A DNA stretch of 64,000 bases from a virus: the IMG/VR virus record IMGVR_UViG_3300035670_000059, positions 1 through 64,000 of that record; one strand, 5' to 3'. How positions within the stretch are numbered: position 1 is the first letter of the stretch; every line of letters begins with the position of its first letter. The notes beneath the pieces are model-generated. The model made no database searches, was not told where the DNA came from, and saw only the letters and a program-made list of their open reading frames with translations. The translations under genes were made by a program, and so were the position numbers. This document shows positions 76 to 1,156 of this stretch, piece by piece.

Positions 76-291
76 ATGAACAGTTACATGAAATTTAAAA
101 TCGAGAAAGAAACAAGGTGGGATGTCAGTAAAATGGATATCGTAACCAAGTATTTTATTTGGGCAGGTAGCCAATGTTTAGCCTTAGTTAATACTGAGGA
201 GGAAGCAAAAGCAAAGTTTAACCAAATCAAATCCTGTTATATCCAGGGTGAGACTGTAGTGATACTAGAAGAGGATATTGAGATAAAATAA
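76..291 (+). CDS. hypothetical protein (71 aa)
   Basis: ORF with AT-rich leader and phage-like composition. Confidence 0.7.
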   Translation: MNSYMKFKIEKETRWDVSKMDIVTKYFIWAGSQCLALVNTEEEAKAKFNQIKSCYIQGETVVILEEDIEIK

Positions 292-299
292 TATAAAAT

Positions 300-377
300 A
301 GTCAGGTGGCGGAATTGGTTGCCAAGATAGCGGACTCTAAGGAGCGTCTATCACAGGTTCGAGTCCTGTCCTGACTA
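300..377 (+). ncRNA. tRNA-like element, non-canonical anticodon/D region
   Basis: Acceptor stem AGTCAGG/CCTGACT, TGGCGGAATTGG D-loop start, T-arm ACAGG-TTCGAGT-CCTGT; no proper anticodon stem. Confidence 0.65.
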
Positions 378-611
378 CACATTCATAAACGCATCCAAGC
401 GGGCAGTAGGGGATGATGAATTAAAATAAATTGTATAAGAAGCCACAAACGGTCAACTCGAGATAAGGCCGGAGTAAGGTATGAAAGAATATCCGAAAAG
501 AGAATAAGGCACACAAGTCAATTCTTAATGGAGAATAACGAAGCCCTGCGATACTATGTAGATGCCTCCACGTGGCAGTATTGGATAACCAACTAAATCT
601 ACAAACTAAAT

Positions 612-758
612 AGTCAGGTGGCGGAATTGGGAGACGCATTGCCAAAGCAAGTGAGTAATTGACGAGTGGGAATGAACCTAAATCTCGTAATGGGATAACC
701 TGATGGGATTTCAGAGACTCGCCTTTCACAAATACAGGTTCGAATCCTGTCCTGACTA
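612..758 (+). ncRNA. tRNA-like element with ~95-nt structured insert replacing the anticodon/variable arms
   Basis: Same acceptor stem and T-stem as 300-377; D-arm GCG-GAATTGGGAGA-CGC; internal pairings GTGAGT/ACTCGC, ACGAG/CTCGT, CTGA/TCAG, TTGC/GCAA. Confidence 0.7.
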
Positions 759-778
759 CACATAACCATAATTTTTGA

Positions 779-1040
779 AACAACATGCATGTTGTTCTTA
801 AAATGGGGTACCCCGTAGGGGATACCCCTGCCTGTGTCCGTACGTGCGCGTATACGCCTTGGCCGGTATGCCGTATATATTACGTAGTTACGCCCATACG
901 CGTAGGTATCCATATATGCGTGGGTGCCGGAAAAAAAAGTGTAGATATACACACAGAGCTCTTAACCCTTTCCACCCCGACCAAGTATATACAAATATCT
1001 TATAGGATAAAAAATGGCCCCCATAAAGGGGGCCTTTTCC
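779..1040. repeat. GC/CpG-rich cluster of palindromes (candidate origin, packaging or terminus region)
   Basis: AACAACATGCATGTTGTT (779-796), GGGGTACCCC (805-814), AGGGG-ATA-CCCCT (817-829), GCGTATACGC (848-857), TACGCGTA (897-904), GGCCCCC-ATAAA-GGGGGCC (1016-1034). Confidence 0.6.
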
Positions 1041-1156
1041 CATTTTACCCATTTTGGAAAAAAAACATAAAGCGGCAACCTTCTTTTTTAAAAAACCTTT
1101 TTGGGTATGGAAAATATATATAAAAATAACCTATTGGTTATTCCAAAAAATTAAAA

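Follow-up and report, generated by a model that had tools for sequence, protein, structure and literature searches.

A leucine-tRNA-like shell around unrelated inserts: two members of a virus-borne family of putative non-decoding RNAs

The Locus and Its Two tRNA-Like Elements

The DNA considered here (the window) corresponds to the first 64,000 nucleotides of the 113.7-kb IMG/VR record IMGVR_UViG_3300035670_000059, which was assigned to a T4-like virus on the basis of its portal, head and baseplate proteins. Close to one end of this contig lie two tRNA-like elements, E1 and E2 (Table 1), while the opposite end carries five tRNAs and a third, truncated copy of the same tRNA-like shell, the contig stopping 35 nt into it.

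A preliminary description of this DNA had proposed that both elements share their acceptor and T stems, and this was borne out by motif searches as well as by folding. A 19-nt 5' motif is present in only two copies in the 113.7-kb record (300-318 and 612-630), and so is a 24-nt 3' motif with one R position (353-376 and 734-757), for which 0 matches are expected by chance (100 shuffles). Under unconstrained folding, a 7-bp acceptor stem and a T arm form in both elements. The reading of the shared ends has to be extended in one respect, since a leucine-type D arm belongs to the common shell as well, being complete in E2 (3-bp stem and 11-nt loop bearing G18 G19) and shortened in E1, where G18 G19 are present and the TAGA part is absent. 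The run A-C-A-C was found after each of E1 (300-377) and E2 (612-758); CAC stands after A73 as the trailer, meaning that neither element encodes CCA, as had been claimed.

The middles of the two elements are indeed wholly different. They are unrelated in sequence, measure about 28-34 nt in E1 versus about 96-103 nt in E2, and were assigned to different insert groups. The interval between D and T arms of E1 is predicted to fold as a single irregular hairpin (outer stem of 5 bp, bulge, inner stem of 3 bp and loop of 4 nt), whereas that of E2 folds into a mini-hairpin of 4 bp with a 4-nt loop, followed by a branched arm of about 70 nt and a single-stranded linker whose last base is U48. The spacer between the shells has a fold z-score of -0.3. 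Its terminal module (537-610, about 74 nt) recurs in three other phage loci with 87-91% identity, and in one of them (L029) the homologue is found directly upstream of a shell.

Table 1. Features of the E1/E2 locus (positions in the window).
Feature	Position	Strand	Basis and remarks
Upstream 71-aa ORF	76..291	+	ORF list; stop 8 nt before E1; anchor for comparing related phages
E1 5' leader (A-4, A-2, T-1)	292..299	+	Sequence
E1 5' shell arm: acceptor 5' strand 300-306, shortened D hairpin 307-324	300..324	+	Sequence, fold
E1 cargo hairpin replacing anticodon and variable arms	325..352	+	Fold
E1 3' shell arm: T arm 353-369, acceptor 3' strand 370-376, discriminator A 377	353..377	+	Motif, fold
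E1 trailer CAC	378-380	+	Sequence
Inter-shell spacer, without conserved ORF	378..611	+	Sequence comparison, fold
E2 5' shell arm: acceptor 5' strand 612-618, U8 G9, D arm 621-637	612..637	+	Sequence, fold
E2 cargo: mini-hairpin 639-650, branched arm 651-722, linker 723-733	638..733	+	Fold
E2 3' shell arm: T arm 734-750, acceptor 3' strand 751-757, discriminator A 758	734..758	+	Motif, fold
E2 trailer CAC	759-761	+	Sequence
Presence/absence block E1-spacer-E2	298..758	.	Missing in close relative

Relation to tRNAs and Other Known RNA Classes

Neither element has the 5-bp anticodon stem and 7-nt loop of a tRNA cloverleaf. ARAGORN reported no tRNA and no tmRNA in the window and was negative on E1 and E2 individually, which, together with the folds, agrees with the initial claim that a canonical anticodon arm is lacking. 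With introns allowed, its sole solution joined the 5' end of E1 to the 3' end of E2; as neither element alone yielded a solution and no Rfam intron family matched, the idea that the insert splices out to leave a standard tRNA, which the preliminary description had named as the observation that would overturn it, found no support. A search of Rfam at gathering thresholds was also empty for the window. In a small local Rfam search, E1 barely exceeded the tRNA model threshold (30.2 bits vs 29) by virtue of its shell, the "anticodon" region being aligned as a 3-bp stem with a 10-nt loop, and E2 matched the tRNA model through its T arm alone (14.8 bits).

Three more specific candidates were rejected. 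The loop of E1 contains the string U-CUA-A, reminiscent of an amber suppressor, but no stem closes a 7-nt loop around it, all five pairs that would do so being mismatched. Such a suppressor would moreover be unneeded, because the phage genome is 95% coding under the standard code (code 11), with TAG serving as a rare, normal stop. A tmRNA is contradicted by the ARAGORN result and by pair 3-70, which is U-A, so that the alanine identity G3-U70 is absent. Finally, a Y RNA (YrlA) found no Rfam match, and neither a Ro60 (TROVE domain) gene nor a CCA-adding enzyme is encoded in the 113.7-kb record, estimated to be about 70% complete. A search for T4 Rnl1 gave no match in the record, and likewise none in control genomes.

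A Large Family of Phage-Borne Shells

Exact matches to the 19-nt 5' motif were found in at least 119 IMG/VR contigs and, among the matches listed, nearly all have the same 3' arm around middles that are very different in length and sequence. A covariance-type comparison with the shell model gave 176 matches across 100 loci, and cataloguing the inserts resulted in 192 unique elements with inserts of 13-180 nt, falling into about 161 unrelated groups. A single locus may contain as many as 10 members, which lie among the true tRNAs in the same orientation, and in the arrays shells alternate with spacers of 150-500 nt. The invariance of the 5' end of the shell is in part a matter of ascertainment, because the loci were gathered by the exact 5' motif.

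With the shell model R1, E2 scored 61.0 bits over the full model length despite being outside the training set, and E1, which was part of that set, scored 60.0 bits. Other family members scored 52-91 bits, true phage and host tRNA-Leu 43-50.5 bits and other tRNAs 22-35 bits, so that membership was set above about 51 bits, that is, above true tRNA-Leu. Both elements also present the 5' arm of the family (acceptor strand AGTCAGG, U8 and a leucine-type D arm with G18 G19, the latter arm shortened in E1) and its 3' arm (canonical T loop, complementary acceptor strand and A73), and they are encoded by a phage with a tRNA cluster, here at the other end of the contig, and flanked by a tRNA-type leader and trailer. 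By model score, architecture and gene context, E1 and E2 thus belong to a large virus-borne family of non-decoding leucine-tRNA-like RNAs.

In the family alignment, 98.7% of shell cells are paired, and double-sided changes affect 10 of the 15 shell pairs (34 cells vs 2.4 in shuffles). In the D hairpin of an E1-like shell (locus L138), a G-C pair is exchanged for A-U. These compensatory changes are at odds with decaying pseudogenes devoid of covariation, the other outcome that the preliminary description had regarded as damaging. Conservation in the 150 aligned members is highest at positions of tertiary or identity value, namely U8 (149), A14 (145), A15 (148), U48 (136), G53/C61 (150), T54-C56 (147-150), A58 (149) and A73 (134). 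ARAGORN called 27 of the 192 members as tRNAs, with scattered and odd anticodons that appear spurious.

No blastn match was obtained among 50,697 records of cultured phages, and the 19-mer occurred in just 16 of about 185,000 cellular species representatives: nine are MAG contigs with shells, which are probably phage DNA, and seven lack the 3' arm and are chance matches. The hosts of the shell phages look diverse, and the MAG matches suggest Flavobacterium or Chitinophagaceae among them. In the literature searched, no description of this AGTCAGG-shell family was found, nor of a natural tRNA-scaffold library of this kind.

Shell-bearing contigs were also present in RNA libraries of four studies, with one 120-nt contig spanning E1 end to end; being assembled contigs, they attest presence only, do not make RNA ends visible and could have a DNA source. 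Positions 401-600 and most of the E2 cargo are left uncovered by the RNA-library contigs, a gap that carries no weight in either direction, and only 5-8% of sampled words were found in RNA runs. Among DNA runs, the richest in these words are subsurface metagenomes from one study, possibly the source sample.

Maturation Signatures and Leucine Identity

The sequences flanking the shells resemble those of the tRNAs with which they are interleaved. In the leaders of 192 shells, T-1 is found in 80%, A-2 in 74% and A-4 in 74%, the corresponding values for 217 true tRNAs from the same loci being 70%, 63% and 66%. On the 3' side, C74 follows 93% of shells vs 98% of true tRNAs, and a C-A/T-A trailer is common to both. 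The true tRNA-Leu genes lying beside the shells have varied acceptor and T stems and normal anticodon arms.

Leucyl-tRNA synthetase (LeuRS) of E. coli requires the tertiary/identity set seen in the shells, and it dispenses with the anticodon and the variable arm, tRNA-Leu without both still being charged (PMC9976931). The known LeuRS identity elements are kept across the aligned family. E1 deviates from this pattern, as part of its leucine D loop is missing and position 48 is C instead of U; therefore, judging from these positions, E1 may not be a LeuRS substrate.

Conservation and Structure of the Cargos

In four flank or shell contexts, the E1 cargo is found without a single change. When compared with the L138 element, it shows 0 changes in 28 positions against 9 in 25 of the 5' shell (Fisher p = 0.0005), and against 12 in 49 when the whole shell is considered, including two compensated acceptor pairs. 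A gapped-probe search recovered homologues of the E2 cargo, about 95% identical, from three metagenome contigs whose flanks are unrelated; an 18-nt probe taken from this cargo gave a single, chance coding match in IMG/VR. Going by these alignments, each of the two cargos is a conserved module that is met again between unrelated flanks, an identity that could reflect recent transfer instead of selection. Among vertical relatives, the comparison of change rates in insert and flank had three informative pairs only.

Regarding structure, the inserts exceed random fragments slightly in fold stability (mean z of -0.46 vs -0.17), the individual values of the E1 (-0.7) and E2 (-1.1) cargos being unremarkable. 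A search for a motif common to the cargos found none, no Rfam family matches the E1 or E2 cargo, and when 140 kb of shell-rich loci were compared with Rfam all 116 matches were tRNA.

Several possible roles and origins of the cargos were discarded. Complementarity of the E1 cargo, the E2 cargo and the spacer to the 113.7 kb of the phage itself is at chance level, which led to the rejection of an antisense guide directed at the phage, and 301 genomes from the bacterial family to which the G001 MAG belongs yielded no antisense target. The same 301 genomes offered only weak matches to the tRNA-like arms and a few chance-level ones to the spacer, and a host origin of the cargo was dismissed too. 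A 7-nt string in the E1 loop resembles a Shine-Dalgarno sequence, but the genes of this phage have no Shine-Dalgarno enrichment, and mimicry of this signal was equally set aside.

Mosaicism at Shell Sites

Related phages (loci L152-L156) were found via the 71-aa ORF protein, with flank homology of 82-95%. At this site they carry 0, 1, 1, 1 or 2 shells, whose inserts are unrelated. In the relative lacking shells (L152), the absence of the whole E1-spacer-E2 block matches the outer shell ends with a tolerance of 1-2 nt, and 15 nt are found instead, identity being 94.6% upstream and 88% downstream of the missing block. The empty form of the site was also seen in one RNA-library contig. In another case, an element with E2-like cargo (L158) and one with E1-like cargo (L101) share a 97% identical stretch that begins within the 3' arm. 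More generally, among 197 elements the homologous pairs are alike in the insert only (59), upstream only (32), downstream only (31) or throughout (19). In the junctions as assembled from metagenomes, phage homology thus starts and stops within the shell arms. The earlier suggestion that the conserved ends act as recombination repeats is in this way upheld at the DNA level, both by the breakpoints in the arms and by the variation between zero, one and two shells per site.

No protein is consistently encoded near the shells, the commonest cluster being present at 11 of 119 loci among the matches listed, and the top neighbour clusters (phosphoesterase, DUF932, a sigma-like protein and terminase) are unrelated to RNA. 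Integrases, transposases and homing endonucleases were not consistently found near shells either.

Comparison with Known Systems

The closest counterparts are stable RNAs of classical phages. T5 encodes RNA1 and RNA2 (AY543070, 30501-30644 and 32959-33083), which lie in a tRNA cluster and are annotated as "tRNA-like stable RNA with unknown functions". RNA1 (144 nt) has paired ends, a T arm and a leucine-type D arm nearly identical to that of the shell, with an insert of about 85 nt in place of anticodon and variable arms, that is, the same architecture as E2; in RNA2 (125 nt), the T arm is nearly identical to that of the shell. The T5 RNAs differ in having other acceptor stems, in scoring 20.2 and 22.3 bits on the shell model, like ordinary tRNAs, and in being single copies as opposed to an invariant shell with many cargos. 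They are moreover annotated as stable RNAs, whereas the RNAs of E1 and E2 are putative.

In T4, RNA C (species 1) and RNA D (species 2) are small stable RNAs specified at the end of the tRNA cluster (AF158101, 70908-71171). They are late RNAs confirmed by Northern analysis, with a function as yet unknown (PMC9697503). RNA C (139 nt) resembles E2 in its T arm, its paired ends and the large insert between them, but a leucine-type D arm is not evident in it and its shell-model score is 23.1 bits; in RNA D no T arm can be made out, and for neither has a family with exchangeable cargo been described. E1 and E2 conform to the architecture of T4 RNA C and T5 RNA1, as non-decoding elements of phages with a tRNA cluster in which a T arm and paired ends surround an insert. 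Homology to T4 RNA C or T5 RNA1/RNA2 past general tRNA likeness was not detected (20-23 bits, and no blastn match among 50,697 records).

Class II tRNA-Leu (RF00005) shares with the shell the D arm sequence, A15-U48, G18 G19, the T loop and A73, in addition to the leader and trailer signatures and the location in tRNA clusters. It has, however, an anticodon arm of 5 bp and 7 nt and varied stems, whereas the shell is devoid of that arm and its acceptor and T stem sequences are fixed. Bacterial tmRNA and YrlA are similar to the shells in being non-decoding and in framing a large insert with a retained acceptor stem and a T arm. In engineered tRNA scaffolds, a foreign RNA is placed in the anticodon region, and the cell processes and stabilises the product like a tRNA; the working principle is the same as that proposed here for the shells, but the device is man-made. 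It constitutes a general approach for producing recombinant RNA in E. coli (PMC3753655).

At the DNA level, the shells recall cassette systems. Integron attC sites and T4-type promoter-stem-loop cassettes are short conserved boundaries that surround highly variable, shuffled units. The boundary of the shells is different in that it is a functional-looking tRNA top half, and no integrase is associated with it.

Interpretation and Alternatives

The explanation that fits best, and which is given about an even chance of being correct, is that the shells are tRNA-processed scaffold RNAs with exchangeable cargo, whose arms serve also as recombination handles. The first part had already been put forward in the preliminary description as a tRNA elbow used as a scaffold for variable RNA cargo; it stands on the invariant top half, the hypervariable middles, the tRNA-type flank signatures and the behaviour of the cargos as units, from which we infer processing and function. 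Another of its suggestions, a decoy for anticodon nucleases or for sensors of uncharged tRNA, gained no support from any of the observations. The constant shell comprises the acceptor stem, the leucine-type D arm, the T arm and A73, with the cargo replacing the anticodon and variable arms. The part retained is that by which RNase P, the 3' trimming and CCA-adding enzymes and LeuRS recognise a tRNA. Shell genes would be transcribed together with the phage tRNA/RNA cluster, and the RNAs would be excised at tRNA-type 5' and 3' ends and receive CCA from host enzymes. The L-shaped top half would render the cargo abundant and stable, with leucylation as a possible addition, and the cargo would be the working, sequence-specific part, its job differing among members. 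Between co-infecting phages, the invariant arms (about 26 and 27 nt) would act as homology handles for swapping cargos and inter-shell spacers, presumably by general homologous recombination, and swapping through the arms would keep these uniform while the cargo repertoire turns over.

tRNAs punctuate mitochondrial transcripts, and the shells could likewise be mere processing signals from which RNase P and RNase Z cut free the spacers as small mRNAs or sRNAs, the inserts being mostly neutral filler. This would account for the limitation of invariance to the tRNA part that processing enzymes need, for the leader and trailer signatures, for weakly structured inserts without a common motif, for the alternation of shells with 150-500 nt spacers and for the conservation of module 537-610 in other phages. 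It is nevertheless considered unlikely, given that the E1 cargo is conserved more strongly than its own shell and the E2 cargo at about 95% in unrelated contexts. Filler should in addition tend to shorten, but insert length goes up to 180 nt; the punctuating could already be done by true tRNAs of these clusters; and the leucine-specific A73 and A15-U48 are kept though cutting does not need them.

In another alternative, aminoacylation by host LeuRS is what matters, and the shells might be leucine-charged non-decoding effectors (a leucine donor, an EF-Tu/LeuRS sponge or a sensor or decoy for systems that read charged tRNA), with cargo that tunes or targets them. In its favour, tRNA-Leu is among the few types whose synthetase ignores the anticodon, the invariant part matches the minimal LeuRS substrate and the replaced elements are those that LeuRS ignores. 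This is quite unlikely: A20a/A21 or U48 is missing from E1 and from some other members, the hosts look diverse while identity rules are known for few species, and hundreds of different cargos would be left without a reason.

Decay is an improbable account, in which tRNA-Leu paralogues lost the anticodon arm, were kept alike at their ends by gene conversion and have no RNA function. Tandem arrays, very active recombination at shell sites, weak insert structure and the odd ARAGORN calls, which may represent a decay continuum, could all be seen in this light. However, the rare shell changes are compensatory, the maturation signature extends outside the converted arms (leader -1, -2 and -4; trailer C74), cargos are unchanged across different phages and shells, and a single shell is found in well over 100 different contigs while adjoining true tRNA-Leu genes vary freely.

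It is very doubtful that the shells are primarily DNA elements, with inverted-repeat ends working as recombination or mobility sites in the manner of attC or promoter-stem-loop cassettes and the tRNA likeness being a relic. The bases best conserved are those of RNA-tertiary loops (G18 G19, T54-C56, A58 and U48), the flank signatures match RNA processing and no integrase, transposase or homing endonuclease is consistently near, even if the precise presence/absence of the E1-spacer-E2 block, the breakpoints within arms and an invariance of the arms in sequence, not in structure alone, speak for such elements. Least probable are real decoding tRNAs with an unusual anticodon arm (E1 U-CUA-A reading amber) or a spliced-out insert, for which E1 offers a CUA triplet between U and A and one bit over the Rfam tRNA threshold, against five mismatched closing pairs, the absence of any ARAGORN solution from one element with or without introns, no need for a suppressor in this genome and inserts that match no intron family and are too short for group I introns.

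A bolder version of the scaffold reading is put forward tentatively, as possible and clearly less probable than the basic one. The family might constitute a phage "tRNA-scaffold display library", in which hundreds of small RNA effectors, such as decoys or inhibitors of host RNA-binding defence or translation factors, ride on one leucine-tRNA top half that any host would process, tail with CCA and perhaps leucylate, the arms being universal handles for trading cargos between unrelated phages. If true, such a library would parallel integron cassettes at the level of RNA genes, and T4 RNA C and T5 RNA1/RNA2 would be explained as relics.

Significance

The annotation of T4 and T5 has long included stable RNAs that resemble tRNAs but lack an anticodon. 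What is new is that two more examples can be set in a very large, environmentally widespread modular family, characterized by a constant frame, many cargos and cassette-like exchange. With so many natural variants to compare, the old question of the T4 and T5 RNAs becomes testable. In practical terms, tRNA finders miss or mis-call shell genes, and the repeated shell arms may fragment assemblies, because this very contig stops within its third shell. Should the cargos be effectors, they would represent a new class of RNA accessory genes of phages and a new mechanism of modular gene exchange, as well as a natural precedent for the tRNA-scaffold trick of biotechnology.

The two elements and the shell family

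The virus record that carries E1 and E2 (IMG/VR; 113,732 bp, linear, ~70% complete, the window being its first 64 kb) encodes portal, major head and baseplate wedge proteins that match T4-type phage families. Its coding share is 95% with the standard code, TAG being a rare stop, and no Shine-Dalgarno enrichment is seen in the genes of this phage, a pattern familiar in Bacteroidota. The preliminary description had recognized twin tRNA shells with the same ends and unrelated middles, and this was borne out: the record contains two copies of the 19-nt 5' end and two of the 24-nt 3' end that the elements share, against 0 expected by chance, and when folded without constraint both elements form an acceptor stem (7 bp) and a canonical T arm. 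The predicted fold of E2 further carries a leucine-type D arm, a 4-bp mini-hairpin, a ~70-nt branched arm and an 11-nt linker; E1 is predicted to form a shortened D hairpin and a single irregular hairpin.

A search of IMG/VR for the 19-nt motif, in line with a check proposed with that description, gave at least 119 exact matches; among the matches listed, nearly all share the 3' arm, their middles differing widely in length and sequence. Allowing a few mismatches raised the collection to 207 elements (192 unique), whose inserts measure 13-180 nt (median 56) and fall into 161 groups. A single locus holds up to 10 elements, interspersed among the true tRNAs and encoded on their strand. A covariance model of the shell (R1), built with E2 outside the training set, gave 61.0 bits to E2, 60.0 to E1 and 52-91 to other members, versus 43-50.5 for true phage and host tRNA-Leu and 22-35 for the other tRNAs scored, and made 176 matches across 100 loci. 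In an alignment that was itself fitted to the model, 98.7% of the shell pairs are formed (146 distinct sequences), and compensatory double changes affect 10 of 15 pairs, with 34 cells versus 2.4 in shuffles.

No match was obtained among 50,697 records of cultured phages. In cellular genomes the motif occurs in shell-bearing MAG contigs (3 Flavobacterium, 2 Chitinophagia-type and a few others), all else being chance coding matches. The neighbourhoods of family loci revealed no partner protein consistently encoded near the shells, and neither a Ro60 gene nor a CCA enzyme gene was found in the record.

Nature of the inserts

Inserts fold slightly more stably than random fragments (mean z -0.46 versus -0.17, p = 0.005; E1 cargo -0.7, E2 cargo -1.1). 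A motif search detected nothing common to the family inserts, none of which matched an Rfam family. A search for antisense targets was negative both in the ~70% complete phage record and in the 301 genomes searched from the bacterial family to which the G001 MAG belongs. The proposal that shells are processing punctuation and inserts mere filler appears unlikely, although it is the foremost of the alternatives.

Leucine-tRNA character and flanks

True tRNA-Leu of the same loci have the D-arm type of the shells but differ from them in having variable acceptor and T stems and normal anticodon arms; 211 true tRNAs present 169 different acceptor strands versus essentially one in the shells. At least 97% of 150 aligned shells keep U8, A14, A15, G53-C61, T54-C56 and A58, with U48 in 91% and A73 in 89%. 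The E. coli LeuRS requires A73, A15-U48, G18 G19, A20a and the D/T-loop contacts, and ignores the anticodon and variable arm, tRNA-Leu deprived of both arms still being charged (PMC9976931). The constant part of the shells thus coincides with what is read by RNase P, the 3' enzymes and LeuRS, and the part that is replaced coincides with what these enzymes ignore. That the elements function through leucylation as such is an unlikely reading, somewhat weaker than the filler proposal.

The flanks of shells resemble those of true tRNAs from the same loci, as seen for T at -1 (80% versus 70%), A at -2 (74% versus 63%), A at -4 (74% versus 66%) and C74 (93% versus 98%). Both sets have the trailer C-A/T-A and seldom encode CCA; E1 and E2 each display the A-4, A-2, T-1 leader and a CAC trailer. 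Bacterial RNase P prefers leaders with U(-1) and A(-4). As judged from sequence, these signatures are indirect but specific indications that shells would undergo tRNA-type maturation.

Transfer of cargos and exchange at the arms

Together with its own shell, the E1 cargo is found identical in three distinct flank contexts, and it also occurs unchanged within a different shell (L138 and three other loci), in which two acceptor pairs are swapped with compensation and the D arm is altered. In that shell the cargo has 0/28 changes versus 9/25 (p = 0.0005) for the 5' shell and 12/49 (p = 0.003) for the shell as a whole. The E2 cargo seemed unique in IMG/VR, but a gapped probe recovered three metagenomic contigs with ~95% identical cargos and unrelated flanks; these homologues differ by a few substitutions and by a 3-nt insertion in the region predicted as terminal loop of one hairpin. 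Against this background of conserved cargos, decaying paralogues kept alike by conversion are doubtful, more so than either of the preceding proposals.

Relatives retrieved through the upstream ORF (L152-L155) share with the E1-E2 site flanks that are 78-96% identical. L152 has no shell, 15 nt standing in place of positions 298-797, and this empty form also occurs on one RNA-library contig; L153, L154 and L155 each hold one shell with an unrelated insert between the same boundaries, where the window has two. Elsewhere, L158 (E2-like cargo) and L101 (E1-like cargo) share 97% identity over 218 nt starting inside the 3' arm, the following element of L158 matching another place of the L101 array, and the ~100 nt upstream of the L155 shell are the same as the spacer preceding the E1 homologue in L101 and L149. 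Homologous pairs among 197 elements taken with 150-nt flanks are related in the insert only (59), upstream only (32), downstream only (31), throughout (19) or, in one case, in both flanks without the insert. Assembly k-mers are usually longer than the arms (at most ~29 nt), so chimeric assembly is unlikely to be the general source of the mosaic junctions. Recombination elements acting mainly at the DNA level, a reading close to these breakpoints, are given a smaller chance than decaying paralogues.

Other elements at the record end and around the shells

Coordinates of E1, E2 and neighbouring or related elements
Element	Position	Features
E1	window 300-377	begins 8 nt past stop of 71-aa ORF
74-nt module	window 537-610	3' end of E1-E2 spacer; 87-91% conserved in L029, L033, L056
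E2	window 612-758	separated from E1 by 234-nt spacer
9-bp hairpin	window 776-797	perfect; closely 3' of E2; missing in 4/4 relatives (L152-L155) aligning through there
GC-rich island	window 779-1140	dense in palindromes; 86-93% conserved in L152-L155
Terminator-like hairpin	window 1016-1034	bidirectional; plus- and minus-strand transcription converge
123-nt tRNA-like element	G000:C1:112805-112927	leucine-type D arm, different acceptor stem; 7-nt loop reading GUC, closed by 5-bp stem; ~44-nt extra arm; G at 73
'freshwater-1 RNA' match (RF02979)	G000:C1:113104-113165 (L161:1205-1266)	60.1 bits, E = 8e-13, under gathering score 72; protein-free stretch, tRNA-Thr on one side, long tRNA-like element on other
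144-nt element	G000:C1:113206-113349	T arm; 7-bp acceptor stem of other sequence; A73; D arm not recognisable
Third shell 5' end	G000:C1:113698-113732 (L161:1799-1833)	just past tRNA-Glu; cut by contig end after 35 nt
CA/CT-rich leader	L155:3290-3325	~32 nt; also in L149 and L101; ahead of different shells in different phages
Family members with D-loop insert	L154:3216-3339; L066:5150-5266	extra ~25 nt between A14/A15 and G18 G19, besides cargo at anticodon position

The repeated arms may be the reason why assembly stops at the third shell copy. If the genome is circularly permuted, the tRNA cluster may run on in the direction of E1 and E2. The 123-nt element may be an odd class-II-shaped tRNA-Asp. 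Its L149 homologue keeps GUC with a compensated stem. The element scores 20.9 bits on R1, default ARAGORN does not call it and it has no Rfam tRNA match at E <= 0.01. With introns allowed, ARAGORN assigned the region of the 144-nt element to a tRNA-Ser interrupted by a 167-nt intron, a call that is probably wrong.

Copies of the 74-nt module, one of which directly precedes a shell in L029, differ in reading frame, which points to a probable RNA or regulatory element and not to a mini-gene. The CA/CT-rich leader belongs to a ~100-nt spacer module moving independently of cargo and could be a promoter or processing site. The 9-bp hairpin is a separate small insertion.

Known phage RNAs and interpretation

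T5 RNA1 (144 nt) shares the design of the shell elements, down to a near-identical leucine-type D arm; in T5 RNA2 and T4 RNA C, paired ends and a T arm surround a large insert. Annotation lists the T5 RNAs as stable but of unknown function, and for T4 RNAC and RNAD the function is also given as yet unknown (PMC9697503). On the shell model, T5 RNA1 and RNA2 and T4 RNA C reach 20-23 bits, in the range of ordinary tRNAs; they are objects of the same kind, outside the shell family. In the literature searched, no RNAs with an invariant shell and exchangeable cargos are described, and a survey of candidate structured virus RNAs (PMC10690425) mentions tRNA-like candidates in general terms only. E1 and E2 are a real feature of a kind already known but unexplained.

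The absence of a canonical anticodon arm, also claimed in the preliminary description, agrees with the lack of any tRNA or tmRNA call by ARAGORN in the window and of any Rfam match for E1 or E2 at gathering thresholds; in a small local Rfam search E1 passed the tRNA model by one bit, via its shell alone. Genuine decoding tRNAs, or spliced ones, are the least credible reading and highly improbable.

The shell covaries structurally, its flanks bear tRNA-type signatures, its cargos are conserved and transferable, and breakpoints fall in the arms. At the level of sequence, E1 and E2 are identified as two non-decoding genes derived from tRNA-Leu and members of the shell family. The scaffold reading, to which we give roughly even chances as a whole, goes further: E1 and E2 would be co-transcribed with the RNA cluster, released through cleavage by RNase P and 3' enzymes, tailed with CCA and possibly leucylated, the cargo would be the working part, and the arms would also act as homology handles.
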